64,000 bases of DNA from Klebsiella phage Miami: sequence record MT701590.1. One strand, written 5' to 3'. Of this stretch, positions 1-44,301 are shown piece by piece. Both the position numbers and the translations under genes were made by a program. The stretch's first letter is position 1; each line of letters starts with the position of its first letter. The notes beneath the pieces are model-generated. The model had not been told where the DNA came from. It searched no databases and saw nothing but the letters and a program-made list of their open reading frames with translations.

Positions 1-627
1 TTTGAATATCTTAATATTCCTGGATCTTCCGGATCGGTTAGTTCCGCCGGAGGCGTGTTTGGAAAGGTCGTGTGTAAAACGGCCAGTTTTAGTTCTTCCG
101 TAATTCATAAAGGGTCATTTACGACATTGAATTTGTTAGGTAAAACTTACGTTAGGGATGTTGGGGCGGCAGCACTGGTCGTTTCAGGAGGAAAAAATAA
201 AATAGAGGATTCCTATATTTCTGGGAATGCAACTTTAGACGGCGGCGGAACAATATTTAACACGGACATAGCCGGACCCGCATCCTTTACTGGATCGTGG
301 GCGTCGAGAATGAATAGAGTTAATGGAAATTACTCTATTGGATCTTCCTCAGCTGAGACGTACGCGTCAGAACATAGTAACATTTTCGTAAACGGTCAGC
401 TTTCAATCAATGGATACGCTAAAGCATCGTTAGAAAAAATGACCGTGGGTAACATCTACTTCAATGTTACTGGCGGATGGTGTACTTTAGAAAAAATAAA
501 GATGGCCGGGGCTTTAAGTGGAAACCCAATAAGCGCAACAAATATTCCTGGGTACGGGTCGGTAACAACCAATCCTTCTACCGGGGCGATCTATGTTTAT
601 AAATCCACAGGATGGACGGAATTATAA
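1..627 (+). CDS. tail fiber protein, C-terminal fragment (5' end lies upstream of window)
   Basis: Frame of ORF 55..627 has no stop back to nt 1, so the CDS enters from upstream. Gly/Ser/Asn/Thr-rich, beta-rich composition is typical of distal fiber or receptor-binding domains. It sits directly upstream of another tail fiber gene. Confidence 0.5.
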   Translation, partial: FEYLNIPGSSGSVSSAGGVFGKVVCKTASFSSSVIHKGSFTTLNLLGKTYVRDVGAAALVVSGGKNKIEDSYISGNATLDGGGTIFNTDIAGPASFTGSWASRMNRVNGNYSIGSSSAETYASEHSNIFVNGQLSINGYAKASLEKMTVGNIYFNVTGGWCTLEKIKMAGALSGNPISATNIPGYGSVTTNPSTGAIYVYKSTGWTEL

Positions 628-644
628 ATTTAAAATCAATCTTA

Positions 645-668
645 TTTCCCTGACGGACGTCAGGGAAA
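645..668 (+). terminator. stem-loop (tttccctgac-ggac-gtcagggaaa) between fiber genes; weak terminator or RNA structure
   Basis: 10-bp inverted repeat read directly from the sequence. No clear U-tract follows. Confidence 0.3.
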
Positions 669-692
669 TGGCTATTAAAGAAAGGCTAGAAC

Positions 693-3600
693 ATGACCAC
701 GCCAACCGATAAAGATATACCGAGTAACTCGGTACAAGATAGACTGTATAACGCCGAGAAATTTGATGAGTTTATGAACTCGGATAATGTCAATTACACT
801 GACCGTAAAGGAAAAAGCAGATGGACATTATCGGGTATTAGACAAGCCGTCCAAAATTGGATGGATACTCTGAAAACCAGTTCAGGGGCTTCAGCTATCG
901 GCTACGGTACGAGCACAGTCGCCGATGAAATCGCTAAGACGGTCAAGCAGCAGATCACTTTCTCAACCGGCGGCACACTGAATACACCGTTAGATCGTAT
1001 AAGTGACGGAACGTATTTGTATTACTGGACCGGTGTATTCCCGAAACAAATCCCGGCGAATTCAACAATTGATTCAACCGGCGGCATGGGAGTTGGTGCG
1101 TGGGCCGCGGATACCGATTCATTATTGAGAAAAAAATTATCAGATGAGGGCGGTTCTCAGCTTATTTTCGGGTTAGGAAACATAATCGGGACAGTCGTCG
1201 AGATCCTGAATTCCACAGAATCCCCCCAGATATATCAGGCAAATGGGTTTTATGCGCAGAATGACGGCGGCGAAGGCGTTTGGGTAGCGACGGGGAATAC
1301 CTCTCCTGAATTATCAGGTAAACACGTGCCATCAAGCGCGGCGGTATACAACGCAAATGGCGTCGAATATCAACTGAAAGTACAATCTGGATTTGAATTA
1401 TCAGCAAAAGCTAACGGATCTAAGCCAGTCAGCAATGTCGATGCTCAAACCGAAGATTTCGTATGTCTTGGTGAAGTAGTGAACGGTATCACGTCGCGTG
1501 TCAAAACTATGAGCAATGACGACGATTTTTGGACGTACCTAAAAGTCACCATACCGTCCGAGACCCCATTACGTATCGGGAAAAGCAGTATCAAGGCTTA
1601 TTCGCGCTTGACGTTAGATTTTCAGCAGGCTTCAATTTACGTCAGGCCGAGCCCGTCAAAACGCCAGGAAGTCACCGGCGTTTATATGAACGCCATCGAG
1701 CGCGGTATTGAAGATATCAAGGCGATATCCGCAAAGTATGCCGGTAAGACGTCTTACTTTAATATGACCGTTTCGAATTTTCACATCATCGGTGGGAAGT
1801 TCTTCGGCGACCATAACACTGATAAGGGGGTTGCGAATTGCAGTACCGGCACTGGATTGCTCACTTACAATTTAGAAGAGTCCAGCGTCACTAATACGTG
1901 GTTCCAGGGATTTGCTTGTGGGCGTCAATACGTCCGCACCGTGTCCGGTTATTATTTCGATAACCTTGGGCGCAAAATAACGGGCACGCTGGTTCCAGAA
2001 GTTGCTTCTTCAGCCACTGGTTCTTATGAGGGCGTTAAGGAATGGTCCGTCACGGCTTATGGCTGCCGTTACATGTACCTGAGAACTGTCAGTAACTGGG
2101 CGAGATTCGAGAACTGCAAATTCGGTACCTACGCTGACTGGGGGTCAAGCCCTGATGGCAACCAGTGCGAATACTTCATTGAGAACCGAGGAGCCGGTGT
2201 AGTATTCAGTGGCGGTGTGATTGAAGCCAATACCTCGGCCGCCAACCCAACAAAAGGCTTTGTGAGGGACTTCGCCCGCGGGTGTACGTTCACAGGTATC
2301 TACTACGAGAACTGCCTGTCGGCTGGGTGGGTCATCACCACTCCTGAAAAGAGCCAGTACAACCGAGCTAATGGACTGTTCCTTACAGCTATTGGGAGTC
2401 AGTATACTGGATCGTCGAAGGGCGCCCCCCTGGTTAAATTTGAACCGGGATACTTTGGCTCATACGACGCTACTACGGGGCTGTATAAAACAGGTGGTTG
2501 GGAAACAAATTACCAGTATTCGGGTGGGGTTAACACCTGGTCTGTAGGTCAACCTGTTTTAGATTCCGGGGCTTTCCCTCACGGTGGGTATGACTTTAAA
2601 TATGGGACTTACGGGATCCATTATTCTGGAGCTGCGCCGGATGTAGACTCGCTTCGGGACACCCCTGAAGGTAATGAGTTTCTGTCTCAATATGGATTAC
2701 TGGTTAACTCCGGAGTTTTGTTATTCCCTGAATTATCCCCGGCATATCACTCTAACATCGTAGTTTGGTATAAAGACCTGACGGGTAACTTTGACCCAAG
2801 GGGTATTGTTGTTGGTGATTTCGACAATAACAACGTGTCTGATGGGACCAGCAATGCGCTCTACCGTACTAATGGGTTTAATTACTATGACTACGGTAAT
2901 GGGTATAAGGCGGCCATTGTGCCCTACGTTAACCCGCGCCCACTCGATAACAGGATGACAACGTCTGCCGGACGCAAGTTAAAAATTACTGTAACCAGTG
3001 ACGCTCCTATTATCCTGAAAAGCATTCAGGCGTTCGTAGGGGGGACTCCGATATTCCCGCCAGCCGTTAAGGAATATGTGCCTCGTTCACAACGAGACCG
3101 CATATGGGGTACTATGACTGGTGCCTCTACGAATTCTGGTGCGTATTACGGTCCACTGATTGGCGGCGGTATCTTCCGACCAGGTGATGTAGTGTTACCT
3201 TTTACGCCGTTCCAGAACCCCTTGTTGCTGGATCCGCTAACGTACACAGATATTTCCGGGACCTTTGGCTCGAGCGCAGAAATCGTTACTATTACCGGTG
3301 GTGCGACCTGGGGAGCTGGATTATCCGGTAAAACCATCGCCCTTACAGTAGTAGACCAAGACGCAACCCATGGCTGGACAACCGTCTCGGTACCGTCTGA
3401 CAGTTTGGCATACATCTTAACCGGGATGCCGGTTAACATAACGGCAAACTCCTCCGGGGGGGGTACAGGGTTTATAAATATTGTACGCAGGATTATTAAT
3501 TCCGATGGGACTCTGAGCAATAATTACGTGTTGTCCGGTACCCTTGGGGCCCCTGGTACGACCCTAACAGCGTCAACAAACGGGAGTTATACATTGCGCT

Positions 3601-4334
3601 CTGGGGTGTCTTCGACGCTTTCTGGTGTTTCTGGTTCGTTCAGTTCTGGATCGTGGTTAGGTTCGTCATCTGGAGATTTGCGCGTAGGGTATGGGGCTTC
3701 ATCTTCTAGTACGCGTCAAATACGTTACTACTACAACGGCACGGATGTGTCCGCCGGGATAGGGTCTAATGGTCTTACCTCCTTGTACTTAACAGGTACA
3801 GGCGGGATCACCCTCAATGGGTCTTTACTAACAAGTACAAGCTACTCATTTGGTAGTGCGTCGGCATACCCAGCGAACATCTACTCTCAAAACGCCGTAA
3901 CAGTAGTCTCTGACGAGAACTACAAAACCGACATAGTAGAGTTAGAAGATGCTGAGATTGAGTGCGCTAAAGCCTGCGCCAAGTTGTATCGCCGCTATAA
4001 GTTGAAAACAGCCGTAGCTTTAAAAGGTGAAGATGGGGCCAGATACCATGTGGGTACCATTGCTCAACTTGTTATGCAGGCTTTCACTGACGCTGGTCTG
4101 GACTGGACGAAGTACGGGATCATTACTTATGAGTCTTGGGAAGATTCCGATGCAGTTTTTGAAACTGTGGGTGCTACCTATGATGAAGAAGGTAATGAGT
4201 TAACTCCTGAAACTACTGTAGAAGTTACTCCTGCTAAAAAGGCCGGGGAAATCTACATGGTTCGCTACGACGAATTTAATAGTTTCGTTATGGCTGGACT
4301 AGAAGCGCGGATTCAAGACCTAGAGATTAAGTGA
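693..4334 (+). CDS. long tail fiber / tailspike protein with C-terminal intramolecular chaperone (peptidase S74-like) domain
   Basis: 1213 aa. N-terminus MTTPTDKDIPSNS..DRLYNAEKFDEF..YTDRKGKSR is homologous to the N-terminus of the minus-strand ORF 6753..9323. The C-terminal ~150 aa (DIVELEDAEIECAKACAKLYRRYKLK..GEDGARYHVG..TYESWED) matches the autoproteolytic chaperone domain of T5 pb1-type L-shaped fibers and endosialidases. Confidence 0.85.
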   Translation: MTTPTDKDIPSNSVQDRLYNAEKFDEFMNSDNVNYTDRKGKSRWTLSGIRQAVQNWMDTLKTSSGASAIGYGTSTVADEIAKTVKQQITFSTGGTLNTPLDRISDGTYLYYWTGVFPKQIPANSTIDSTGGMGVGAWAADTDSLLRKKLSDEGGSQLIFGLGNIIGTVVEILNSTESPQIYQANGFYAQNDGGEGVWVATGNTSPELSGKHVPSSAAVYNANGVEYQLKVQSGFELSAKANGSKPVSNVDAQTEDFVCLGEVVNGITSRVKTMSNDDDFWTYLKVTIPSETPLRIGKSSIKAYSRLTLDFQQASIYVRPSPSKRQEVTGVYMNAIERGIEDIKAISAKYAGKTSYFNMTVSNFHIIGGKFFGDHNTDKGVANCSTGTGLLTYNLEESSVTNTWFQGFACGRQYVRTVSGYYFDNLGRKITGTLVPEVASSATGSYEGVKEWSVTAYGCRYMYLRTVSNWARFENCKFGTYADWGSSPDGNQCEYFIENRGAGVVFSGGVIEANTSAANPTKGFVRDFARGCTFTGIYYENCLSAGWVITTPEKSQYNRANGLFLTAIGSQYTGSSKGAPLVKFEPGYFGSYDATTGLYKTGGWETNYQYSGGVNTWSVGQPVLDSGAFPHGGYDFKYGTYGIHYSGAAPDVDSLRDTPEGNEFLSQYGLLVNSGVLLFPELSPAYHSNIVVWYKDLTGNFDPRGIVVGDFDNNNVSDGTSNALYRTNGFNYYDYGNGYKAAIVPYVNPRPLDNRMTTSAGRKLKITVTSDAPIILKSIQAFVGGTPIFPPAVKEYVPRSQRDRIWGTMTGASTNSGAYYGPLIGGGIFRPGDVVLPFTPFQNPLLLDPLTYTDISGTFGSSAEIVTITGGATWGAGLSGKTIALTVVDQDATHGWTTVSVPSDSLAYILTGMPVNITANSSGGGTGFINIVRRIINSDGTLSNNYVLSGTLGAPGTTLTASTNGSYTLRSGVSSTLSGVSGSFSSGSWLGSSSGDLRVGYGASSSSTRQIRYYYNGTDVSAGIGSNGLTSLYLTGTGGITLNGSLLTSTSYSFGSASAYPANIYSQNAVTVVSDENYKTDIVELEDAEIECAKACAKLYRRYKLKTAVALKGEDGARYHVGTIAQLVMQAFTDAGLDWTKYGIITYESWEDSDAVFETVGATYDEEGNELTPETTVEVTPAKKAGEIYMVRYDEFNSFVMAGLEARIQDLEIK

Positions 4335-4443
4335 TTAATAACTCACAATTGATGTGGGGACCGGTGACGAGTGATAGAATCTGTAAGAGGTGACATCGTT
4401 ACAGATTTTTTGTTACCGCACCGGTCGATGTTATGAAAGGATC

Positions 4444-5247
4444 ATGGTTTTATCACACACAGCAGGTACTTATATGCATAATCGTAGTGTTAAGCGTGCT
4501 AACCGCGACGCTCGTCGCGAAGCAAGACGTCAAGATAAGTCCCAAAGTAGTCAACTGAAACTGGTGGACAACAATTTCAGTGAAGTAAACCTACCTCTTG
4601 CAAAAGCTGATCGGAGTAAGATTGAGCCGAAAACCCCAATGCAACAAAAATATTGGGATGGGTTACACGCCCACGATGTCGTCATCGGTATTGGTGAAGC
4701 GGGTAGCGGTAAAACGTTCCTCCCGACTTGTTACGCTGCAGAACGTCTGCTGGCTAAAGACGTGGAAAAGATTATCGTTACACGACCAGTCCTACAGGCC
4801 GATGAAGATCTGGGTTTTCTCCCCGGGGATGTTAATGAGAAATTCGCACCTTACTTCCGACCGGTCTACGATATCTTACTGAAGCGCCTGGGTGGTGGAA
4901 TGCTTAACTATTGCATGAAGCCTGGCGTGGAGAAAGTTGAAGTCGCCCCCTTTGCTTTTATGAGAGGTCGTACTTTTTCTGACTCAGTAGTGATTCTTGA
5001 CGAAGCGCAAAACGTTACAGTTATGCAGATGAAAATGTTCATCACTCGTATGGGTGAGAACACTACGGTAATCATCAACGGCGACCTTACCCAGTGCGAT
5101 CTTCCTAAAGGAGTTAAATCCGGTCTGGAAGATCTGCTGGAACGCATTGAACGAGATCCTGAAAATGGATTCCCGATTTATCGTTTCAATGCGGCTGATA
5201 GTGTGCGGTCAGAGATTTGTTCCAAAGCCCTGAAACTTTATAAGTAA
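4444..5247 (+). CDS. phoH: PhoH-like ATPase
   Basis: Walker A GEAGSGKTF, then LGFLPGD and PYFRPVYD motifs typical of PhoH. Start taken at the ATG with AAAGGA Shine-Dalgarno (MVLSHT...) rather than the upstream GTG of the ORF track. Confidence 0.85.
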   Translation: MVLSHTAGTYMHNRSVKRANRDARREARRQDKSQSSQLKLVDNNFSEVNLPLAKADRSKIEPKTPMQQKYWDGLHAHDVVIGIGEAGSGKTFLPTCYAAERLLAKDVEKIIVTRPVLQADEDLGFLPGDVNEKFAPYFRPVYDILLKRLGGGMLNYCMKPGVEKVEVAPFAFMRGRTFSDSVVILDEAQNVTVMQMKMFITRMGENTTVIINGDLTQCDLPKGVKSGLEDLLERIERDPENGFPIYRFNAADSVRSEICSKALKLYK

Positions 5248-5255
5248 GTTCTAAT

Positions 5256-5292
5256 AACTCCTACTCCCGATAAGGGAGTAGGAGTTATTTTA
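5256..5292 (+). terminator. rho-independent terminator, copy 1 of a repeated 29-nt hairpin (aactcctactccc-gataa-gggagtaggagtt) plus U-tract
   Basis: Perfect 13-bp stem and 5-nt loop followed by ATTTT. The identical hairpin recurs at 19055 and 40476. Confidence 0.8.
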
Positions 5293-5337
5293 AACGCACC
5301 ACGACCATTTATGAACTTTTCATAAGAGACTGTAATC

Positions 5338-5805
5338 ATGAACCTCATGTACGACAATTACTACGGAAAAGAAATACTTGGATTGGGTTTAGAGGGTGAA
5401 GTCATCACAATGCTAAATTTGGCGATGGCTGATATTAATCACTTCGCTAAGAAAAGTATCGCTAAAGATATCAACCCCTATCCGTTCAATCTGGAAGATT
5501 TTAAGCACAACCGTTTTAACGAACACTACTTCCTCGTTTTTGATGGGAAGAAAATAGTGTCGATTCTATCCGTCGTTTACGCTTTAGAGCATCATCTCAA
5601 AATAGCTAAAATCTTTAACGTTTATACGTTACCGGAGTATCGCCATAAAGGGCTTGCTAAACGCAACCTAATCGCCGCTATCGTGTCGGCAAGATCAAAT
5701 GGGTACATTGTGCAGTTAAACGTTTACAGGTCTAATAAAGCCGCTCAGAGGCTTTACAAGAGCCTTAAATTTAAACCCGTCGAATACACTATGCAGCTCG
5801 GTTAA
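5338..5805 (+). CDS. GNAT-family N-acetyltransferase
   Basis: 155 aa. Motif-A-like segment VYTLPEYRHKGLAKRNLIAA (Q/R-x-x-G-x-G/A) in the expected position. Confidence 0.5.
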   Translation: MNLMYDNYYGKEILGLGLEGEVITMLNLAMADINHFAKKSIAKDINPYPFNLEDFKHNRFNEHYFLVFDGKKIVSILSVVYALEHHLKIAKIFNVYTLPEYRHKGLAKRNLIAAIVSARSNGYIVQLNVYRSNKAAQRLYKSLKFKPVEYTMQLG

Positions 5806-5917
5806 TTTTAACGACCATAATGTTTTATTGGTAATAAACGAGAATACGTTGTTTTAAACATCGGTTTGAAATAACACGTTCTCATTTTAAACAATAAATA
5901 AAAAGGTAATAGCCGTT

Positions 5918-6706
5918 ATGAAAATCACGAAACAAGAATTATTATCCGCTTATGTTAACAACGGCACGTCAGATGTCTTAATTATCAATAAAGATAATGA
6001 CACGTTAACTCTTCGTCTTCGTCAGTCTGATACCGATTACGACGATTTCAAGAACATCATAGGTTGGTTAGAAGAAATCACCTTCGTTGGCCATAATGAA
6101 TTACGTCTAAATCCAGGATCCTCACTAACCGGTAAGATCCATCTGGATAACGTGAGTTCTGACGTAGCGAAACTTAATATCGGCCACAGCTCTCTTGGTG
6201 TAACTAAGATAATTGGACGTGGTAGTGTGGAACTCACTAACGCCAGGATACAAGCGGCCACGATCATCTCCAATGCAGGTGATGATGTTACGACAATTAA
6301 AGATTCCGAAATCATTAAAGTTGATGTGGGGGCGAGTAAGATAGCTAATAGTTCTTTGGTTTGTAAAGACATCGTAGGATCGTCCCTCAAAGTCCATAAC
6401 TCCGATATTTGTCATTCGGTTATTTACGCTAACGGGGGAGAGATATTGGATAAGGCGATACGTTCTATTGTCGTCGATACGGACTTATTCGAAGGGAAGT
6501 ATTTATCCATTGGATTCAACGGTTGTCAGATCGTTTGTTATACAAATAAGAACGAGAAGATCGTCGTTGTAGGCGATAAACGATACAACCTAGGACTGTG
6601 GGAAGAACAATTCGTTAATAAAGAGCAAAATTCATTCATTAAAATGGTGAATCAAAAGAAATTAGAAATGATGAATATGTTCTTCGATAGTTTGGCGTTT
6701 AAATAA
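5918..6706 (+). CDS. beta-solenoid-like repeat protein (possible fiber accessory or assembly protein)
   Basis: 262 aa with approximately 15-18 residue repeats (..SSLGVTKIIGRGSVELTNARI.., ..ASKIANSSLVCKDIVGSSLKVHNSDI..). AT-rich gene. Converges on the tailspike gene at the palindromic terminator. Confidence 0.45.
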   Translation: MKITKQELLSAYVNNGTSDVLIINKDNDTLTLRLRQSDTDYDDFKNIIGWLEEITFVGHNELRLNPGSSLTGKIHLDNVSSDVAKLNIGHSSLGVTKIIGRGSVELTNARIQAATIISNAGDDVTTIKDSEIIKVDVGASKIANSSLVCKDIVGSSLKVHNSDICHSVIYANGGEILDKAIRSIVVDTDLFEGKYLSIGFNGCQIVCYTNKNEKIVVVGDKRYNLGLWEEQFVNKEQNSFIKMVNQKKLEMMNMFFDSLAFK

Positions 6707-6752: not shown

Positions 6753-9323
6753 TTAACTTACATAAATGGAAGTTAACGATAGCTGGGAGAATATCCCTGA
6801 AATGTACGCCTGAACACCTCGCGTCCCTACGGTGTAGCGATCAATAAAACTATTCATTTGGGTCGAACTAGTTCCTGAATAGTCAGTCCCTGAAACCGAC
6901 ACGGAGGTTGTTCCCGATAGAGTATTGACTGAACTGGTAATATTAGTGGCGATGGATCTCGCCAAAATACCACTTCCGGGATAGTCAATTTTAAAAACAT
7001 CAAAAAAGGTATTACCGGATTGCAAATGGGTGGCCTGCAGACAATTTCCTTTGGCCACATATAAAGCCCCGGACCAACTACTATTATTTACTCCGGTGTT
7101 CCAGATCATCAGAGAAGAAATTGGCGTACCTGAGTTATTATAATAGGAGCAGTCACTTAACCGGAACCATTGGGCTAAATTCAAATTAGATGATGTGACC
7201 GAACTTAACGAGTAGTCGCCGGAAAAACTTACCCCTGACGCTTTCAGTCTGTGAAGGAACGCCGAATCGGCGGTCGTTAAAGGCAAATTAGTCCCTGATT
7301 TGACACTCCCTCCCCTCATGTTAATTTCTACACGTTGATTGGCTTCCTGGGTGCCGTCGTTGGTAATGAACCTTGATAACTCACAGTCGTTGAAATTATA
7401 GGACCCCCTTTGTGAGATTCTCACTAGGGTGGGGGTGCCGTTGTAATTGGGGTTGTGTAATCTCCTAGCGTCGAGCCTAATATTGTGTTGAAATCCGTAA
7501 GATGGACGTTTGATAATTAAATTATCCACCCCTACGTTGTTCATACTGACTTTCATGTCGATAGGTTCGAACATAGTGTCGGTCGATGCAGAAGTATTGC
7601 TTGCCCTGGGCTTCGTGTTGGTGAAATCAATTTTTAACGTCCCGCCGGCGGCGTAGGTAACGTTGTCAAATCGAATATTCATAGGAGGGGTAACCGTTCT
7701 GTCGCGGTTTATCCAATAAATATTTTGAAGGCAACTAGAAGCTTCCGGAGTCTCAATAGTCAAGCCGTCAATATCTATTTTATTAAATAGCTCCCCAGCC
7801 ATCTGAGACCCAGTAGGTAAAGAAGTGTAATTATCGGCGGCTCCCTGTACAATGGACCCTTCTCCATTGGACGCTAAACTGTAATATTTCCAAAATCCTC
7901 TGACCCTGACGTTACGCATAATCAGCGTCCCATCGGTGATTCCTCCGGAAGTAGTCCTGGCCTGCACAAGTGAAGGGAAAAGAAATTTTCCGTAGTAAGG
8001 GTCTCCGGATCCCCTCCCCAGTTCGTATACTGTGTCAAGTATCTCGAGAGTTGAGTTTTTAGTACCTAAGAAAACAGCAGCTCCGTCACCAATCTTGCAG
8101 TTTACAAGTTTGTAATATCCGATGCTTGGGTTATGACTATCGAAGTTGTTGGCCGAGCAATTATCAAAAATGGTATCGGCTATCCAACCGGCCGCGGATA
8201 TCGACCCCCATCCGTAGCCAAACGCGTTTACGTTTCTTACGTATAACTTCGCCCCCCACCCATGGTGGAGTGTGTAAGATGCATAAATGGTCGTTTGATC
8301 CGAGGAAGAAAAGGAAGCGGTTGGGTGAGCGTCGTAGATGAAATCCACGTAGGTGTTGTAGTAATACTGAATGTCGATAACGTGACGTGATCCTATTTCC
8401 GTAATCGGTTTATTGAGTATTCTCCCCTCTTTTATGATCAAGTTGGACACATAAAAGAACTGGAAGAATATAGGTCTAGGTCCATAACGATAGTCGACGT
8501 CCGGCATAATAAATTCACTGAAACCAGCCTGGATAGGTAGCGCCGATATGCTAGTAATCGACGTCCCGTTGTAAGGGAAGACGTTATCCATTTTGCCGTT
8601 AGCGCTTATCCTGGTTACGTGAGCGAGTTTCTGAGTTTTTGCGCCAGCTTGGGTTTGTGTGCTATTATAAACATATAGGTCGTCTGAAAAATTCATAATG
8701 ACCATGCTGTCGTTTAAAGTCGTGTCCGATCCCAACGAATCTAAACAACCGTTTCCGCTTAAGAAGTCTGTGGAGGCATTAGCATTTAACTTAGTTACCA
8801 CGGAAGATCCGGAGGCATGGTTAACTAATCCGCTCGATTGAGAGATCCAGAAAGTCCCGGTAAAATCAGCCGCCGGAATAATTTTCATTCCCCCTAAATC
8901 GGTCTTCTTATTATCGATGATCCAGTTAAACTTGGCGTTACCGGAAATCAAGTACTCACCAGATTTTTGTTTTATAGGAATGCCCGTCAATGTCGACAAT
9001 TGAATAAGGGCTAAAAGTTTGTCGGTGACGTCAACATCCCCCGTGTTCTCTATACCAAACATGTCACAGGAAAGAAATGTTTGAAGGTTAGAGACTTTAC
9101 CTCCATAAGGAAGATTTATAATTGACGACCCGTCCCCTCCGGTTAAAACATTCAGGGTTTCCTGGACGGCCGCCGCTACCCCCTTAGCGGTCAATCTCTG
9201 GTTACCAAAACGATCAGTATAGGTATTCTCATCGGAATTAATGATCTCATCTAACTTTTCGGCATTAAATCTAACATCTATAGCGGTGCTACTGGGTATA
9301 CCATTTTGTGTTGGAGTCGTCAT
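6753..9323 (-). CDS. tailspike / tail fiber paralog (probable beta-helical polysaccharide depolymerase-type receptor-binding protein)
   Basis: 856 aa. The N-terminal ~60 aa (MTTPTQNGIPSS..DVRFNAEKLDEI..YTDRFGNQR) are clearly homologous to the N-terminus of 693..4334, and the rest is unrelated. Asn/Gly/Ser-rich with patterns like right-handed beta-helix tailspikes. Confidence 0.75.
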   Translation of the reverse strand: MTTPTQNGIPSSTAIDVRFNAEKLDEIINSDENTYTDRFGNQRLTAKGVAAAVQETLNVLTGGDGSSIINLPYGGKVSNLQTFLSCDMFGIENTGDVDVTDKLLALIQLSTLTGIPIKQKSGEYLISGNAKFNWIIDNKKTDLGGMKIIPAADFTGTFWISQSSGLVNHASGSSVVTKLNANASTDFLSGNGCLDSLGSDTTLNDSMVIMNFSDDLYVYNSTQTQAGAKTQKLAHVTRISANGKMDNVFPYNGTSITSISALPIQAGFSEFIMPDVDYRYGPRPIFFQFFYVSNLIIKEGRILNKPITEIGSRHVIDIQYYYNTYVDFIYDAHPTASFSSSDQTTIYASYTLHHGWGAKLYVRNVNAFGYGWGSISAAGWIADTIFDNCSANNFDSHNPSIGYYKLVNCKIGDGAAVFLGTKNSTLEILDTVYELGRGSGDPYYGKFLFPSLVQARTTSGGITDGTLIMRNVRVRGFWKYYSLASNGEGSIVQGAADNYTSLPTGSQMAGELFNKIDIDGLTIETPEASSCLQNIYWINRDRTVTPPMNIRFDNVTYAAGGTLKIDFTNTKPRASNTSASTDTMFEPIDMKVSMNNVGVDNLIIKRPSYGFQHNIRLDARRLHNPNYNGTPTLVRISQRGSYNFNDCELSRFITNDGTQEANQRVEINMRGGSVKSGTNLPLTTADSAFLHRLKASGVSFSGDYSLSSVTSSNLNLAQWFRLSDCSYYNNSGTPISSLMIWNTGVNNSSWSGALYVAKGNCLQATHLQSGNTFFDVFKIDYPGSGILARSIATNITSSVNTLSGTTSVSVSGTDYSGTSSTQMNSFIDRYTVGTRGVQAYISGIFSQLSLTSIYVS

Positions 9324-9436
9324 CTCTCCCTCCGACTATAAAAATTAACGGCCACACATATTACTATGCATGACTCCTAATGAACTTGGGTCATAAAATT
9401 CAACATGATATTAATCTACATTATTGAGGTTTTATT
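9324..9436. promoter_or_regulatory. divergent promoter region (tailspike on the minus strand, long + strand gene run)
   Basis: 113-bp AT-rich spacer between divergent genes. It contains a sigma70-like TTGGGT-N17-TATTAA facing the + strand. Confidence 0.4.
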
Positions 9437-9712
9437 ATGAAATTTACTTCTGCTGTTGCAAAACTCAAACCCGGTTACGGGATTCAGTGCACCGATTGGA
9501 ATGGTGCTAATCAATTTGTTTTTGATGCCTCTTTGACCATGTCTCTCGTTGAAGCACGCAAGCAGGGCTTCCCCGGCCCGGTTAAACTGAAACCGGTTTA
9601 CGTGTTGCATAACGCTAAAGGTGAGCTGCAACCTGGTTGGGTGCCTTCTCAGGGTGATCTGCGCAACGAGAACTGGGTCGTTGTCAAAATCAAAGACGCG
9701 CTGGCGAAATGA
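9437..9712 (+). CDS. DUF2829-like small protein (Tad2-like candidate anti-Thoeris sponge)
   Basis: 91 aa. AKLKPGYGIQCTDWNGANQFVF ... LQPGWVPSQGDLRNENWVVV fits my recollection of the DUF2829 consensus (..ALKxGKKVxRxGWNGKxMF.. / ..PWxASQxDLLAEDWxIV). Codon usage is strongly of the highly-expressed type. Confidence 0.45.
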   Translation: MKFTSAVAKLKPGYGIQCTDWNGANQFVFDASLTMSLVEARKQGFPGPVKLKPVYVLHNAKGELQPGWVPSQGDLRNENWVVVKIKDALAK

Positions 9713-10035
9713 ACTACCATCTCTTCTTCGTCGTAGGATTGACGGTTTGTTTGATCGTTTTTAGTGTCTTTGACGATTACTACACGAAAAGAGCGATTGG
9801 ACTTAAAGGTTACGTTCCTTTCTGGGCCGTCGCAGTAATTCCAGGAAAATCCAAACTTAGTCTTAAACTGATTAAGTTTAAGATGGCGTGTTATGTTTTA
9901 GTTTGGATTGCGTGGCTGGTCATTCTATCATCTCCGTTACCTTTTCTTGTTGCGTTGATGATGACGATCTTGGGATTACTCAGTTGTATCATGTTAGGAT
10001 CGTTGCTTCACAACATCGCTCAATCTAAAAAATAA
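9709..10035 (+). CDS. small membrane protein (3 predicted TM helices)
   Basis: 108 aa, hydrophobic segments. ATGA overlap with the upstream gene suggests translational coupling. Confidence 0.55.
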   Translation: MNYHLFFVVGLTVCLIVFSVFDDYYTKRAIGLKGYVPFWAVAVIPGKSKLSLKLIKFKMACYVLVWIAWLVILSSPLPFLVALMMTILGLLSCIMLGSLLHNIAQSKK

Positions 10036-10040
10036 ATCTA

Positions 10041-10067
10041 AGTAGGAGAGGTTTCCCCTCTCCTACT
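10041..10067 (+). terminator. terminator-like hairpin agtaggagagg-tttcc-cctctcctact
   Basis: 11-bp perfect stem directly after the stop codon. Confidence 0.55.
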
Positions 10068-10086
10068 TAATAAAGGATGATCTTTT

Positions 10087-11010
10087 ATGCCTATCATTAT
10101 CGTTCCAGTTAGCGGTGGGGTGGAATCCACTGCTTTACTCCATAAAGCCTTACAAGGTGACAACGAAGTTCATCCCGTATACGTTGCCGTCAACGGCGAT
10201 CCCAGATCATCAGTATTTGATTTAACCGCAGCCGAACATATAGTGAATTGGTTTGAAGAACATAAAGGTGGTTACGTCGGGAGATTAAGACCCTTAACGT
10301 ATATGATCAATCCGGTTTTCTTTCATCTCCATAACAACAACAAAATAGAAAACACTCCGGCTAATTATGGAGTGACCCAACAATTTCAATTGGTTTACAA
10401 CATTAGTCTTCTTCGATCTAAATTTTGGGATTGTAATCCAGGTGTCTGGATTGGTTGGTTAAAGGAGGATGGCAATGAATTTTCTTTTAACGAATACGAT
10501 TTCTCGGCAGAGGAGTATAAGGAACTATTAAAATTACCCGTGACACTAGGGACGTTATCTAATATAGATAGAACGTGTAAGCCTTTTAGAGCCCCCTTCT
10601 GGGAAATGACTAAATCGGATGTTTATCTGAGCTTACCTGAAGAACTTAAAACTTTAGTCGTTCCTAACGGTTCCGAGTATTATAACGGAGACGGTGACTT
10701 GGTCAGAACACCTTGGAAAGCTAAAAGGAAAGAATGGATCAATGCGAACATACCTATTAAAGACAGTTATGTATTTTCAGCAGCTCAGATTTCCCGCATA
10801 GGGCGATACGCCGGAAAGAAACTCTTGGGGAAAGATTTCAATCTCTCTCCTAATTACGACGCTTTAATCGAATTAGTTTATCGAGACTCTCGATGGCACC
10901 CCCTCCCCTTTACCAATAAAGACTTCTACACCATTTGTAGTGCGAATAACTTAAAAGACATCGTCAGGGAAGCCCAACACAACATCCCTGCTATCAGACC
11001 AATCGGTTAG
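10087..11010 (+). CDS. PP-loop ATP pyrophosphatase superfamily protein (QueC/ExsB-like N-terminus, unknown specificity)
   Basis: 307 aa. SGGVEST PP-loop at residues 9-15 (MPIIIVPVSGGVESTALL). Lacks the C-terminal Cys cluster of QueC. Confidence 0.55.
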   Translation: MPIIIVPVSGGVESTALLHKALQGDNEVHPVYVAVNGDPRSSVFDLTAAEHIVNWFEEHKGGYVGRLRPLTYMINPVFFHLHNNNKIENTPANYGVTQQFQLVYNISLLRSKFWDCNPGVWIGWLKEDGNEFSFNEYDFSAEEYKELLKLPVTLGTLSNIDRTCKPFRAPFWEMTKSDVYLSLPEELKTLVVPNGSEYYNGDGDLVRTPWKAKRKEWINANIPIKDSYVFSAAQISRIGRYAGKKLLGKDFNLSPNYDALIELVYRDSRWHPLPFTNKDFYTICSANNLKDIVREAQHNIPAIRPIG

Positions 11011-11061
11011 TTGGATGGCTTTATCTATTTTCAGTTCTACATTATCTTTTCGGAGTAATCA

Positions 11062-11250
11062 ATGAAATGTAATCACGATTTTGAAAAACCAACTTACGAA
11101 TTCTTAAAGAAGGAGCTGGGTTTCTTTCACTGCTTTAAACGAACGTGTAAACTATGCGGTCATGTTCACCAACAAGAAGTGAAACGTAAATCAGATGCGC
11201 CTCTCTGGGCTAAAGAAGCGGAAGAGGTATTTCACTATCACAAATTTTAG
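11062..11250 (+). CDS. small Cys/His-rich (zinc-ribbon-like) protein
   Basis: 62 aa with C3, H5, C24, C29, C32, H34, H36. Confidence 0.45.
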   Translation: MKCNHDFEKPTYEFLKKELGFFHCFKRTCKLCGHVHQQEVKRKSDAPLWAKEAEEVFHYHKF

Positions 11251-19247: not shown

Positions 19248-19664
19248 ATGAAAAATATCTTTATCGCCCTCTCTCTGTTCGTTTTCTCTTTCTCTGCACT
19301 GGCTGAAGATTTTGTCTGTAAGACGGAAGCCTATGTCGCTGATCCGAAAGGAACTGATCCGGCCGTAATAACTCACGGTGTTTACAGTTTTGATTACAAT
19401 CGCTCTACCGATGTTTTAACCAAAATTGATGGTAAGAAAGATGACTTCGCAGTCCCTACCTTTGCAGTAGGTAAGGACGACAAAGGCATCACCGTCCGCG
19501 TGGGGTATAAAGGCAAAATGGTATATTGGTTTGGGTTTAACGGCCGTGCTATCGATTCCGTCATTCTGGCGGAACATAAAACCATGATAACCCGAGATTC
19601 TTTTAAAGGGGATACCATGGCGAAAACTGTTTATTTGAAAATGTACAGCGACTGTTCTTATTAA
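19248..19664 (+). CDS. secreted protein with signal peptide (138 aa)
   Basis: N-terminus MKNIFIALSLFVFSFSALA. Confidence 0.55.
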   Translation: MKNIFIALSLFVFSFSALAEDFVCKTEAYVADPKGTDPAVITHGVYSFDYNRSTDVLTKIDGKKDDFAVPTFAVGKDDKGITVRVGYKGKMVYWFGFNGRAIDSVILAEHKTMITRDSFKGDTMAKTVYLKMYSDCSY

Positions 19665-22891: not shown

Positions 22892-23350
22892 ATGAAAAGC
22901 ATCGTTTTAGTTTTACTCTCTTTCTTTTCCGCTTCCGTATTTGCTGGTGCAATGGGAATGGTCGATCCTCTGGACGTTGTAGGTGATCGTTGTGCCCCAG
23001 GTGATATCGTCTTTTACGGTCAAACTGAAAAAGGACATAAAGAAGTTCTCGTCTGCCGTTGGGACAATGATGTCTTTTACTCCTACGGTAAGATCGGTCA
23101 GAAACCCGAGCTGTATCTCAAAGTCAACGTTCGCGACGTAAGGGCTCAGGTTGAAGACACCGACAACACCAGCGGCGAACAAGTCATTATCAAAAATGGT
23201 AATGTGCTTTATTACGTTGGCGCGAAATCTTACTTCAACGAAGCCAAAGATGTAGGTTGGGTTAACGTTACCGATACCGATGGTAAAAAGATCGTTAACA
23301 TTCCACTGGTAGGCAGCGGAACCATAAGCGATATCCGTAACCAATTTTAA
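22892..23350 (+). CDS. secreted protein with signal peptide (152 aa)
   Basis: MKSIVLVLLSFFSASVFA. Confidence 0.55.
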   Translation: MKSIVLVLLSFFSASVFAGAMGMVDPLDVVGDRCAPGDIVFYGQTEKGHKEVLVCRWDNDVFYSYGKIGQKPELYLKVNVRDVRAQVEDTDNTSGEQVIIKNGNVLYYVGAKSYFNEAKDVGWVNVTDTDGKKIVNIPLVGSGTISDIRNQF

Positions 23351-24506: not shown

Positions 24507-24998
24507 ATGAAAAAGATCATGATCGCTATTGCTCTTCTGTCTACCACAGCATTCGCCAACGCCGCTTCTGAGCAGGTATGGAACGCGTCTCTCACCAACA
24601 GCCAAATCACCTGCGGCATCGACTACACCGGCGGCACCCAGGTTGAAGGCGGTATTCTTACCGCTAACGAAAGCGGGACGAATACATCCAAAGCGATTTC
24701 CTTCACCCTGATCGCGAACACGCAAAACGTCAACTGGCAGATCACCGAAGCCAAACTGGTTCAAAACACCGGCCGGTTTGATTTCAGCGATAACCTGCTG
24801 AGTGTAAACGATAAGACCAAAACGTCGGTCTACATCAACGATCAGGAATACGCGTGGCCTGACGCCGCTCAAGCTAAAGCGTTGGCCAGCAATTCTCGCG
24901 TGATCAAACTGGCGCCGAAAATCAATCTGGAACAGTCGGTCTTCCCGATTGGCCAAACAAGGATCGCTGGGAAAATTGTGATTACGTGCACGCAGTAA
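24507..24998 (+). CDS. secreted fimbrial-subunit-like protein (163 aa)
   Basis: Signal peptide MKKIMIAIALLSTTAFANA. Ser/Thr/Asn-rich beta protein with two Cys. Markedly higher GC and host-like high-expression codons. Confidence 0.45.
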   Translation: MKKIMIAIALLSTTAFANAASEQVWNASLTNSQITCGIDYTGGTQVEGGILTANESGTNTSKAISFTLIANTQNVNWQITEAKLVQNTGRFDFSDNLLSVNDKTKTSVYINDQEYAWPDAAQAKALASNSRVIKLAPKINLEQSVFPIGQTRIAGKIVITCTQ

Positions 24999-26179: not shown

Positions 26180-26578
26180 ATGTCTACTATCTCTCAAAAC
26201 TCAACTACTGATATGAACGGCAAAGTGACTTTTAATAAAGGCGCTTTCCCGCAGCTGATGACCCCAACTTTCATGATCTTCATCTGGGCCTATCAGCCGG
26301 TTATGAACGCCATCCAGGGCTGGAACCCGGCCATCGGTTTCATCTTCGCCTTTGTCGTCTTCCTGATCTGGTTTTGTCATGACCGCGCATTCTTGGCTTC
26401 ACAAGGTGCGTTCGTCCCTCACTGGCTTTGGTTCCTTTTCGTTCCGGTGTATATCTATAAACGCCAGAAACGTAACGGTAATAGCCGTTGGTGGGTTGTC
26501 TTCTGGCTGATCAGTGTATTAATGGGTCTGGTGGTTTCCGCCGCCACTATGGCAGTATTCCATCCCCAGGGTTACTAA
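26180..26578 (+). CDS. integral membrane protein (132 aa, 3-4 TM)
   Basis: Trp/Phe-rich hydrophobic segments. Highly-expressed codon signature. Confidence 0.55.
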   Translation: MSTISQNSTTDMNGKVTFNKGAFPQLMTPTFMIFIWAYQPVMNAIQGWNPAIGFIFAFVVFLIWFCHDRAFLASQGAFVPHWLWFLFVPVYIYKRQKRNGNSRWWVVFWLISVLMGLVVSAATMAVFHPQGY

Positions 26579-36729: not shown

Positions 36730-37323
36730 ATGATGATGATCAACTGCTTAGAACCTAACGAATTCGTTCAGTTTAAAGAACAGTGGGATAAATATCTCGA
36801 GGAGGGTCTTCCCGGACTCGATGAAAGAATGAAGGGTCCGATGCTGATCCTGAACGCAATACCTGGGGTAGCGACCCGCTTTTGTTGTTCCGGTCATACC
36901 TTTGAAGAAAGGTTATCATCCCACCCGACCAAAGCGTATTCTCGAGTGCAGAAAAGGAACTTCATTTTTGTCGTTGAAGAAGGTCATGCCGATATTTTCT
37001 TTGCGTTTGAGATACTCTTCAAATTATTGAACAAAGACGAGTTTAGTTTTTGCCGGCCTTCTTTAGAAACCACTCTGCTCAAGAAAAACTTTGGTGAGTC
37101 GGAAACCTATCCGGTTTGGGTATTCGAAATGAATTGGGTTTACGAACTCACCGAGGAAGAAAAAATAAAGGGAAGGGATAAGACCCAGAAAGAACTTTGG
37201 GAGAAACTCCTCAGAGGACTGTTCATGATCACCGATCCAAAGGAACGCCATAAACACCGGGATATTCTGACCGAACCCTATTTCGACCAACCAGGACTTA
37301 TTAGGAAAACACATAATGTTTGA
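36730..37323 (+). CDS. hypothetical protein (approx. 195 aa; start may be the 2nd or 3rd ATG)
   Basis: Conserved leader. Overlaps the nadR start. Confidence 0.5.
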   Translation: MMMINCLEPNEFVQFKEQWDKYLEEGLPGLDERMKGPMLILNAIPGVATRFCCSGHTFEERLSSHPTKAYSRVQKRNFIFVVEEGHADIFFAFEILFKLLNKDEFSFCRPSLETTLLKKNFGESETYPVWVFEMNWVYELTEEEKIKGRDKTQKELWEKLLRGLFMITDPKERHKHRDILTEPYFDQPGLIRKTHNV

Positions 37324-38425
37324 TATCGGCATCGTCGTTGGTAAATTTGCCCCTCTCACCCAGGGGCACATCAACCTCATCACCCAAGCCTCCCTCCAGG
37401 CTAAGAAAGTTATCGTTGTGTTAAGTCATGACAGTCGCTGGTTAGCGCAACAATGTCCTCGTGATCAGAAGGCGTTGACGTTCACTAACCGTCTTCGTTG
37501 GTTACAGCAGCATTACGCCGATTCTGACCACATTGATATTAAATATATCATCGAAGATGACATCCCGGAATTCCCCAACGGATGGAGCGCTTACTGTAAC
37601 CTCCTCAGGAAGATCTACACTGAGGAACAGCACAAGAACTATAAAGGAATCGGATCAGTCGACAACACTCGTCGGATTGCTCAAACCGTGGCCATTTTCA
37701 GTAGTGAAATCGATTACGATAAAGGTTACGAGGAGCATCTTCCTGAAGTCAGTCACGTCGTCGTTGATGCGCATCGTACAGCGGTTCCCATTAGTGCGAC
37801 TAAAATTCGTGAGAATCTTTACGCCAACTGGGAATACCTCCCTTCTATTGTTCGTAAGGACTACACCAAACGGATTGTCATCCTCGGCCAGGAATCTTGC
37901 GGTAAAAGCGTCATGGTCAAGAATCTGGCTAAGATGTTTAATACGTCCTGGGTAGAGGAGTACGGTCGGACGTATTGTGAAACTGAGCTCTGTGGTTCAG
38001 AATCGACACTCCGTAGTGATGATTACCCGATCATCGCTTATCGCCATAAGGAACTGGAAATCCAAGCAATGCGTTCGGCTAACCGCATTTGCATCGTGGA
38101 TACGAACGCATTCATTACCGAGTACTACCATCGGTTGTATGAAGGCAAACCTAATCGTATCGTCTCTGCTATAGCAGCTGAGGAAAACTACGATCTGGTC
38201 ATCGTGCTCGAACCTACGGTGGAATGGGTTGATGACGGCCTTCGTAGTAATCCCGAAAGACAACGGACGACCGAATTATTTAACCTCATGAGTCTGGAGT
38301 TCCCTAACCAGTTCCCGGAAGGAAGAACGTTCCATATTTCTTCCCCTGATTACAAAGTTAGGTTCGACCAGGCTTACGAAATTATCAAAACCTTCACTCA
38401 GCGTGTTAACTCAGGTGAATTTTAA
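37316..38425 (+). CDS. nadR: NadR-type bifunctional NMN adenylyltransferase / ribosylnicotinamide kinase (no N-terminal HTH)
   Basis: N-terminus GIVVGKFAPLTQGHINLITQA (nucleotidyltransferase H/TxGH motif, ISATKIR). C-terminal half has VILGQESCGKSVMVKNLAKMFNTSWVEEYGR (Walker A of the ribosylnicotinamide kinase domain). Collinear with E. coli NadR residues ~60-410. Confidence 0.8.
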   Translation: MFDIGIVVGKFAPLTQGHINLITQASLQAKKVIVVLSHDSRWLAQQCPRDQKALTFTNRLRWLQQHYADSDHIDIKYIIEDDIPEFPNGWSAYCNLLRKIYTEEQHKNYKGIGSVDNTRRIAQTVAIFSSEIDYDKGYEEHLPEVSHVVVDAHRTAVPISATKIRENLYANWEYLPSIVRKDYTKRIVILGQESCGKSVMVKNLAKMFNTSWVEEYGRTYCETELCGSESTLRSDDYPIIAYRHKELEIQAMRSANRICIVDTNAFITEYYHRLYEGKPNRIVSAIAAEENYDLVIVLEPTVEWVDDGLRSNPERQRTTELFNLMSLEFPNQFPEGRTFHISSPDYKVRFDQAYEIIKTFTQRVNSGEF

Positions 38426-39121
38426 ATGAAAGAACTTTTTAGCGTAATCTATACTGATTTCCAGAGCGGATGGAGTCGTAAGGAATGGCTGTGGTTAGTC
38501 GTAGCCGTCTCGGCTGTTGTAGTTGGGAGTATTTCCGCTTCGCCACTGGAATTCTGGGCGGGGATATTCAACGTCGTCTGCGTTATTCTTGTTGCTAAAG
38601 GCCGACTCTCCAATTACTATTGGGGGCTATTAGGGGTGGTTCTCTACGCGATCGTTTCCTACAAGCAACAACTCTACGGCAACATGGCGCTTAACGTCAT
38701 TTACTTCGGATTCCAATTCTGGGGTATTTACGAATGGCGTAAAACACTGCTGAATAAGACTGATGCTGGCGTTGACGTATCCGTTAGGCGATTGTCACTC
38801 CTTCAGTTCCTTCAGATGACGTTCGTTGTTTTGGCAGGGACCTTTGCAGTAAGCTTGTTCCTTCGTCATATCGGGGATAGTTCACCCGTATTAGATGCGT
38901 TTACGATGGTAGCGAGCTTAATCGCTATGGGCTTGATGGTTAAACAGTATTCCGAACAATGGTTACTCTGGATACTGGTCGATATCGCTTCTATTTACAT
39001 GTGGGTCATTCCTGCTTTAGACCAGCCTGGTTCTTGGTCCATGGTAGCAATGTGGACGGTCATCACCGGTAACGCGCTGTACGGCGCTTACATGTGGTTT
39101 GTTGTTAAGATAAATAAATAA
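38426..39121 (+). CDS. pnuC: nicotinamide riboside transporter PnuC
   Basis: 231 aa, 7-8 TM helices. Motifs ..FWAGIFNVVCVILVAKGRLSNYYWGL..YGNMALNVIYFGFQFWGIYEW.. typical of PnuC. Immediately downstream of nadR. Confidence 0.75.
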   Translation: MKELFSVIYTDFQSGWSRKEWLWLVVAVSAVVVGSISASPLEFWAGIFNVVCVILVAKGRLSNYYWGLLGVVLYAIVSYKQQLYGNMALNVIYFGFQFWGIYEWRKTLLNKTDAGVDVSVRRLSLLQFLQMTFVVLAGTFAVSLFLRHIGDSSPVLDAFTMVASLIAMGLMVKQYSEQWLLWILVDIASIYMWVIPALDQPGSWSMVAMWTVITGNALYGAYMWFVVKINK

Positions 39122-40582: not shown

Positions 40583-40885
40583 GTGAACATCTATTTAGTT
40601 AAACCAATGGAATTTACTGGCGACGAAGATATCAACGGTATGGTCGTTGTAGCACCTGACACCAACACCGCCTTGCTGACCCACCCTCATATCGACGCAG
40701 ACGGCAATACCTTCGAATGGGAAGTCGAAACCAATTCTGAAGCCGGTAACTGGGTGGATGATGAGGGCCGAACTGACATCTTCCACGGTTGCGCTTGGCC
40801 GGCTCCTGATCGTTTACACTGTGTTCTGTTGGGCGTAGCCGCCGACGGGATGGAAGAAGGTATCGTGTTGGTCGATCGTGATTAA
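40583..40885 (+). CDS. hypothetical protein (100 aa), GTG start
   Basis: Leader aaccataatctttttaggagcatgtaacGTG. The 20-mer is shared with the GroEL leader. Confidence 0.5.
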   Translation: MNIYLVKPMEFTGDEDINGMVVVAPDTNTALLTHPHIDADGNTFEWEVETNSEAGNWVDDEGRTDIFHGCAWPAPDRLHCVLLGVAADGMEEGIVLVDRD

Positions 40886-44019: not shown

Positions 44020-44301
44020 ATGTCTAAAATCAAACTGACCGAAGAACAACTCGCCACCCTGAATGGTTCGGAATCCTTCGTCGTCTCCGGCCTGGCTGCC
44101 GGCAAAGTCTCCCTGGCAACCGACGTGTCGGTCATCACCCTCGATCTCGATCCGGGTCAGCTGACCATCGGCCAAACCCTGAAGATCAAAGACGGCGTCC
44201 TCGTCACGGACAAAGCCCAGGAACAAAAGGCCGAAAAAGCCAAAGGTAAAAACAACCCGTCTCCGGAAATGGCGGCCAAACTTGCCGGCAGCGCCTGCTA
44301 A
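44020..44301 (+). CDS. small abundant-protein candidate (93 aa) with Lys/Ala-rich tail
   Basis: SD sequence AAAGGAAAAG. Extreme high-expression codon usage (ctg, acc, atc, ggc, gtc, tcc). The C-terminal KAQEQKAEKAKGKNNPSPEMAAKLAG is histone-tail-like. Confidence 0.55.
   Translation: MSKIKLTEEQLATLNGSESFVVSGLAAGKVSLATDVSVITLDLDPGQLTIGQTLKIKDGVLVTDKAQEQKAEKAKGKNNPSPEMAAKLAGSAC

Follow-up and report, generated by a model that had tools for sequence, protein, structure and literature searches.

A Tad2-family protein with an altered base-side pocket in a Klebsiella jumbo phage that also carries a NARP3 NAD+ module

Does a small, unassigned gene of Klebsiella phage Miami encode a sponge for the nucleotide signals of host immunity, and if so, which signal would it capture? 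We addressed this question for the gene at 9437..9712 in a 64,000-nucleotide stretch of sequence record MT701590.1, which we refer to as the window. An earlier note made from the sequence had proposed that this gene encodes a DUF2829/Tad2-like protein that sponges glycocyclic ADP-ribose (gcADPR), that it is written in extreme, ribosomal-protein-like codons, that it is the first gene of a long + strand run behind a divergent promoter, and that it joins a nadR-pnuC pair in countering NAD+-depleting immunity. The reading frame is as described there: a + strand open reading frame (ORF) of 91 amino acids (aa), with the sequence quoted in that note and an ATG start codon, preceded after a gap of 7 nucleotides (nt) by a GAGG Shine-Dalgarno sequence. 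The product is short, single-domain, and phage-encoded, and its ortholog is labeled “hypothetical protein” in all five related GenBank phage genomes, so that the present analysis assigns a function to a gene that had none in those records. Both end motifs singled out in the earlier note are present and align with the two ligand-binding segments of solved Tad2 proteins. The features of the gene are as follows.

9437..9712, + strand: Tad2-family (PF11195/DUF2829) protein of 91 aa, a predicted immune-signal sponge
9497..9505, + strand: codons W21-N22-G23, the beta1-beta2 loop over the ligand in solved Tad2 proteins (aligns with SPO1 Tad2 W25/N26 and HgmTad2 W21/N22/G23)
9638..9658, + strand: codons W68-V-P-S71-Q-G73-D74, the second ligand-binding segment (aligns with SPO1 Tad2 W73/S76/T78/D79 and HgmTad2 W87/L88/S90/T92/D93)
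9488..9496 and 9662..9673, + strand: codons 18-20 and 76-79, with the replaced residues R18C, G20D, F76R, A77N, and D79N

Sequence and predicted structure agree on the family of this protein. The PF11195 (Tad2-like) profile matches it at 53.2 bits, against a cutoff of 25, with E=4.5e-14 and full coverage of the profile (positions 1-73 of 73). Searching the PDB by sequence yielded only SptTad2, SPO1 Tad2, ModTad2, HgmTad2/AcrIIA7, and a second AcrIIA7 entry, and a search with a profile of the protein's clade lifted the Tad2 matches in the PDB to E=1e-14 to 2e-21. An AlphaFold2 single-chain model built with 101 homologs has a mean predicted local distance difference test score (pLDDT) of 91.1 and displays the N-terminal helix, antiparallel sheet, and short loop helices of the Tad2 fold. 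When this model was compared with the PDB by Foldseek, all 24 matches at E<=1e-3 were Tad2-family chains, with template modeling (TM) scores of 0.6-0.8, and the next match had E=1.3. The profile search and the structural comparison, both named in the earlier note as checks of its identification, thus bear it out, and Tad2-family membership is secure. What the gene adds is a somewhat divergent new member to a family that is well known and very widespread, for which our homology search found 1,908 homologs at E<=1e-3 and for which 2,783 nonredundant phage homologs have been reported (PMC12393519); in this respect the advance is incremental. A second Tad2-like copy was sought in the window with a hidden Markov model (HMM) of the clade and six-frame fragments, and none was found.

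Outside Miami's own phage group, the nearest relatives share 41-48% identity with the protein and come from enterobacterial phages and prophages, including IME_EC2 (gp24), the N4-like phages Bas86-88, and Yersinia, Klebsiella, and Pectobacterium prophages. These outside relatives share the clade signature WNGANQF...NAQG.MQPGWVPSQGDLFAEDW. With the WNGANQF...MQPGWVPSQGDLFAEDW clade, the Miami protein shares G73, N59, Q65, and P66; its lineage differs from the clade by the absence of a PGSDY segment and the addition of a C-terminal helix, KIKDALAK. Several clade members (P0027, P0057, P0063, P0064, and P0099) are naturally fused, at the N- or C-terminal side, to Sequestin (PF21825), which is a separate sponge for 3' cyclic ADP-ribose (3'cADPR), and several of these fusions carry PSMGD instead of PSQGD in the ligand motif. 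These natural fusions provide independent support for the view that the clade acts on immune signals.

To relate the protein to a ligand, we mapped the published ligand contacts of SPO1 Tad2 and HgmTad2 onto it and confirmed both numberings by the residue names that the papers give; the HgmTad2 correspondence was taken from ungapped anchored blocks. SPO1 Tad2 (Gp34.65; PDB 8SME/8SMF/8SMG) is the founding anti-Thoeris sponge for 1''-3' gcADPR, and its contacts consist of a core (W25, N26, W73, and D79), an adenine hydrogen bond from T78, nonpolar contacts from I63 and T65, and water contacts from D67, H71, and S76. In HgmTad2, the contacts are W21, N22, G23, M76, A78, T82, V84, W87, L88, S90, T92, and D93, and the mutants W21A/N22A and S90A/T92A/D93A lose binding. 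The ribose/phosphate core is complete in the Miami protein (W21, N22, G23, W68, S71, and D74), where SPO1 Tad2 W25, N26, W73, S76, and D79 correspond to W21, N22, W68, S71, and D74, and the core W, N, W, S, and D are invariant among the 101 clade sequences. The two proteins are also alike in length (89 and 91 aa) and in fold (Foldseek E=2.5e-5, ~30% identity), and they differ in setting, the Miami protein being encoded by a jumbo phage of a Gram-negative host. The spacing from WNG to GW is 43 residues in the Miami protein, 44 in SPO1 Tad2, 56 in SptTad2, and 62 in HgmTad2.

Based on these observations, we consider it probable that the product is a sponge of the Tad2 family for an ADP-ribose-derived TIR signal, most likely the 3'cADPR (1''-3' gcADPR) of type I Thoeris. 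By analogy with the solved homologs, the small protein would form a homotetramer with pockets between protomers in which an ADP-ribose-derived alarm molecule, produced by host TIR-domain immunity, is bound and sequestered. Such sequestration would keep an NAD+-degrading or otherwise lethal effector switched off. The gene would be expressed from its own small transcription unit, located after a divergent tail-fiber gene, and its moderately adapted codons would fit a protein needed in stoichiometric amounts. Within this scheme 3'cADPR is the default candidate for the ligand, and the identity of the ligand is the weak link of the mechanism.

Several observations weigh against this proposal, some of them on the side of the pocket that faces the base. 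The sole direct donor of a hydrogen bond to adenine in SPO1 Tad2 and HgmTad2, T78 and T92, respectively, is G73 in the Miami protein, so that segment 9638..9658 has Gly in place of the Thr or Ser of the characterized Tad2 proteins; this Thr is a feature of gcADPR recognition in characterized members that lies outside the Pfam definition, and ModTad2 has Ser there. Other base-side positions differ as well: SPO1 T65 and HgmTad2 A78 correspond to N59, SPO1 D67 to K61 (the clade residue is Q), HgmTad2 V84 to Q65, and SPO1 H71 and HgmTad2 N85 to P66. Beyond these clade-wide differences, the Miami protein and its two closest metagenomic relatives carry R18C, F76R, and D79N at three sites at which the other 97 clade sequences are 100% conserved, together with G20D, which adjoins W21 at a 99%-conserved position; the same three sequences also have A77N, at a position that is 96% conserved. 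In Miami numbering, R18 and D79 are kept in all four solved Tad2 proteins, SPO1 Tad2 among them, and their replacement by C18 and N79 could mean that an Arg-Asp salt bridge was lost with compensation. We know of no member of this clade that has been experimentally characterized, and we found no transcriptomics in the literature on this phage group; the timing and level of expression are inferred. Finally, family members have been proven specific for His-ADPR (where ADPR is ADP-ribose), N7-cADPR, cyclic dinucleotides, and cUMP/cCMP (PMC12393519). Because proven members differ in specificity, a ligand is not deducible from family membership, and the statement that this protein sponges gcADPR went further than membership allows, given the Gly at the adenine position, the replacement of several invariant residues, and the diversity of ligands in the family.

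These same features led us to consider whether the pocket of the sponge may now be tuned to a signal different from 3'cADPR, for instance, the His-ADPR of type II Thoeris, the N7-cADPR of type IV, or an undescribed TIR product of Enterobacterales. The change from Thr to Gly at the adenine contact is shared by 94/101 clade members and accompanied by clade-specific N59 (99/101 members), Q65, and P66 on the base side, and the lineage-specific G20D and R18C lie beside the ligand loop. ModTad2 (PDB 9EIB/8V3E), a sponge for His-ADPR (type II Thoeris) and cUMP/cCMP (Pycsar) that does not bind gcADPR, deviates at the adenine position too, with WTPSVSD where the Miami protein has WVPSQGD; the ModTad2 preprint presents an apo structure only. 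Moreover, specificities are broad and shifting among the tested Tad2 homologs, different ones of which act against type I, II, and IV Thoeris as well as CBASS and Pycsar (PMC12393519). On the other hand, the ribose and phosphate contacts are unchanged, and SPO1 Tad2 makes few contacts to adenine, so the loss of one hydrogen bond may leave specificity as it was. Tad2_71 binds several ADPR isomers, such that a “retuned” pocket and a “broad” one may be inseparable (PMC12393519). We therefore regard retuning as possible but distinctly less probable than capture of 3'cADPR, while noting that remodeling of the base side, as judged from the residues involved, could shift or broaden specificity. A narrower form of this idea strikes us as doubtful: the PSQGD clade, in particular the sub-lineage with C18, D20, R76, N77, and N79 in place of the clade's invariant R, G, F, A, and D, may sequester a signal unlike that of any structurally characterized Tad2 protein. 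On that reading, the ligand could be an undescribed TIR molecule specific to Enterobacterales, and the loss of the Arg and Asp could represent a second specificity switch within jumbo phages.

Three further explanations were considered. The Tad2 fold could have been kept and repurposed in the jumbo-phage lineage, for example, for binding to a host or phage protein, and the five coordinated substitutions, which occurred despite strong purifying selection, and the KIKDALAK helix are what such a change might leave behind. Retention of every core ligand-contacting residue would be unexpected if binding had been lost, however, and a relative with 68% identity that occupies the equivalent genomic slot and keeps R18, G20, and D79 points to continuity of function, which makes repurposing improbable. 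A dual sponge resembling HgmTad2/AcrIIA7 (PDB 8KBI-8KBM), which binds both gcADPR and cyclic dinucleotides, would extend protection to the CBASS signals cGG and 3'3'-cGAMP, and it would do so through a second pocket. In HgmTad2, this cGG and cGAMP site is formed with a long beta2-beta5 insertion and involves R31, N85, S47, and F70, and the double mutant R31A/N85A abolishes binding. The Miami protein shares the domain and lacks the pocket: R31 corresponds to A31 and N85 to P66, no equivalent of S47 could be aligned, and the insertion is ~19 residues shorter than that of HgmTad2, leaving it short of SptTad2 as well. A second, dinucleotide-binding site is thus very unlikely. Least credible of all is inhibition of Cas9 by an anti-CRISPR of the AcrIIA7 type. 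AcrIIA7 does have the same domain and is a top structural match, but binding of AcrIIA7 to Cas9 was never shown, and the family has since been reinterpreted as sponges; in addition, Klebsiella and its relatives carry type I CRISPR systems and are not known for type II-A systems.

Across six sequences, the ratio of nonsynonymous to synonymous substitution rates (dN/dS) is 0.03-0.10 at dS 0.14-0.39, and identity to a distant relative is 68% for the Tad2-like protein and 46% for a syntenic neighbor. Because dN/dS is low and conservation exceeds that of the neighbor, the gene is not decaying; it is under strong purifying selection. The distant relative, P0003, retains the ancestral R18, G20, A77, and D79, and its metagenomic contig has the same gene order as Miami, with a divergent gene of ~660 aa followed by the Tad2-like gene and a 307-aa PP-loop protein. 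This places the origin of the gene early in the lineage and that of the substitutions within it. A pocket variant with Gly for Thr and replaced invariant residues that is nonetheless under purifying selection amounts to a natural experiment on Tad2 specificity. Among characterized homologs, the ones examined in the discovery paper belong to other phyla. We also considered whether Tad2_71, as rebuilt from its primers (MENNVIETVDFG...EDWIIKS), might be the Miami protein, and ruled this out, as it is a different protein. For the highly expressed Kapi1_043, we looked for a link to the clade by tblastn; Kapi1 was not among the matches listed, so that this protein offers support at the level of the family only.

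The window also contains a second set of genes directed at NAD+, and the nadR-pnuC pair of the earlier note is confirmed at 37316..39121.

37316..38425, + strand: NadR-like bifunctional nicotinamide mononucleotide (NMN) adenylyltransferase/ribosylnicotinamide kinase, the NARP3 enzyme (Pfam CTP_transf_like and AAA_28)
38426..39121, + strand: PnuC nicotinamide riboside transporter, the NARP3 transporter (PF04973, E=2.5e-43)

There is no gap between the stop codon of NadR and the start codon of PnuC (38425/38426). For the NadR-like protein, the match to Bas30_86 (PDB 9x6f/9x6h) has E=2.5e-139. The gene pair and its order are those of NARP3, which consists of the NadR-like Bas30_86 and the PnuC-like Bas30_87. 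NARP3 has been shown by experiment to restore NAD+ depleted by Sir2-HerA, and the paper describing it records it in Klebsiella phages only sporadically and does not contain the word “jumbo” (PMC13464706). Unlike the product of the Tad2-like gene, which would intercept a signal, NARP3 rebuilds NAD+. The phage thus carries both a candidate for signal interception and a module for NAD+ rebuilding, linked only by their co-residence. The proposed NAD+-centered counterdefense is reasonable in light of the NARP3 match, but because the two loci are 28 kb apart and show no evidence of co-regulation, a joint strategy is plausible rather than a finding. For the group of Klebsiella, Raoultella, and Stenotrophomonas jumbo phages to which Miami belongs, the two loci would provide at least two layers of counterdefense against NAD+-centered immunity, which is relevant to the choice or engineering of therapeutic Klebsiella phages that overcome Thoeris- or Sir2-type defenses. 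A look through the literature for how common Thoeris is in Klebsiella yielded no usable figure. A DUF2829 gene also occurs in KVP40-like giant vibriophages, which are known for NAD+ salvage genes of their own, an observation suggesting that large phages repeatedly combine Tad2-family genes with NAD+ salvage.

We then asked whether the codon usage of the gene is as unusual as had been claimed. With Sharp-Li E. coli weights, its codon adaptation index (CAI) is 0.433, which ranks second of the 103 ORFs in the window (z=2.9; window mean, 0.249), and none of 5,000 versions of the same protein resampled from the codon usage of the window reached this value (0/5000). The bias is retained in five orthologs (CAI 0.40-0.48). 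It is therefore real, but “extreme” and “ribosomal-like” overstate it. The CAI typical of enterobacterial ribosomal-protein genes is reportedly about 0.6-0.8 (Sharp & Li 1987), and 0.433 falls far below that. The gene also includes the poor codons CCC, CCT, CTC, TTG, GTC, and AAT (two each) and GGG. An unsupervised principal component analysis (PCA) of codon usage, which is independent of these weights, has a first axis that sets the enterobacterial major codons ATC, AAC, ACC, CTG, CAG, TTC, and CCG against ATT, GGG, AAT, AGA, and TTA; on this “optimal codon” axis, the gene is only 10th of 94 (z=-1.2).

A raised CAI may result from selection for expression or from a host-like origin as a moron, and both accounts are viable. 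The second would attribute the signal, and the codon signal only, to the host-like composition of horizontally acquired genes instead of to selection for bulk expression. In its favor, the gene forms a local peak of GC content (0.49 vs 0.38-0.41 in its neighbors), prophage members of the clade occupy classic moron positions, and the gene belongs to a set of some eight small genes in the window whose CAI is raised, the other seven of which (CAI 0.39-0.47) are listed here.

19248..19664
22892..23350
24507..24998
26180..26578
40607..40885
44020..44301
11062..11250

These small genes look like autonomous accessory units or moron cassettes: among the seven, three products have an N-terminal signal peptide and one is a multi-pass membrane protein, no convincing Pfam match exists for any of them, and several of the raised-CAI genes are preceded by terminator-like hairpins. 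No common motif emerged by eye upstream of the eight high-CAI genes. Nevertheless, the CAI excess survives regression on GC content at third codon positions (GC3; residual z=2.85), the favored codons include the T-ending translational optima GTT, GGT, TCT, and GCT, which GC pressure would not be expected to enrich, the bias persists across orthologs despite dS up to 0.39, and the gene is ancestral to its lineage and not a recent acquisition. We lean toward selection for expression because T-ending optimal codons are favored and the bias has outlasted substantial synonymous divergence, and we hold the compositional account to be the less likely of the two.

The position of the gene is conserved among the relatives of Miami. 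The source is a jumbo phage of roughly 250 kb. Over 8800..11200, it shares 97.9% identity with Klebsiella phage KPN8 (256.6 kb) and 91-98% identity with YC1, phiKp_32, Raoultella phage VB_ZK_P1, and Stenotrophomonas phage BUCTxx100. The neighboring features are as follows.

6753..9323, - strand: tail-fiber gene of 856 aa (phrog_16586, E=4e-86)
9324..9436: divergent intergenic spacer of 113 nt, with GAGG at 9426-9429; presumed promoter region
9709..10035, + strand: hydrophobic ORF of 108 aa, overlapping the stop codon of the Tad2-like gene (ATGA)
10038..10070: hairpin with a perfect 14-bp stem, directly after the two-gene unit; T-run on the - strand only
10087..11010: PP-loop/QueC-like ATPase of 307 aa (phrog_8825, E=1e-27, with a weaker QueC-like PHROG match)

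The Tad2-like gene is the first + strand gene after the tail-fiber gene and, as the earlier note had it, opens a + strand run, which continues to ~58.5 kb. Because + strand genes are also found upstream (310..6706), though, the run is interrupted by one inverted gene and does not start here. That inverted gene, the sole - strand gene between the long + strand runs, encodes 602-856 aa among the sister phages, and because the fiber varies in length while the spacer and the Tad2-like gene stay constant, it fits a swappable host-range cassette. The spacer has equal length and 92-100% identity in five sister phages, in which the position of the gene is likewise constant. The divergent geometry of the genes makes it likely that some promoter lies within 9324..9436. 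The promoter itself did not emerge from a sigma-70 scan of 9100..10200, which found 3 sites where 2.4 are expected by chance; a single 9/12 sigma-70-like match in the spacer (+ strand) is not conserved in the distant syntenic relative. A footprint comparison with that relative showed conservation only of an A/T-rich box, CTATAAAAATTAACG (~9336-9350, by the tail-fiber start), and of the first codons of the gene.

Downstream, the 108-aa ORF has no match in Pfam or PHROG and is probably cotranscribed with the Tad2-like gene. It is present in KPN8 and YC1, none is annotated there in phiKp_32, and BUCTxx100 and VB_ZK_P1 have instead an unrelated 138-aa ORF (L002/L003 3885..4301) and a Tad2-like protein that is 4 residues longer (SAVI); the ORF is hence not a conserved partner. 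The hairpin that follows is a possible terminator or an RNA-stabilizing or -processing element, and its function on the + strand is uncertain because the T-run is on the - strand only; there is no - strand gene near it. No tRNA genes were found in the window. The PP-loop protein could be a nucleotide- or DNA-modification enzyme. Its gene adjoins the Tad2-like gene even in the distant relative (L006 2526..3449; 46% identity) and is apparently missing in BUCTxx100 and VB_ZK_P1. In phiKp_32, an IS200/IS605 insertion sequence TnpB gene (L004 5128..6264) lies just 3' of the PP-loop gene, and no TnpB is present at the corresponding junction in the window; the neighborhood is therefore an active insertion site.
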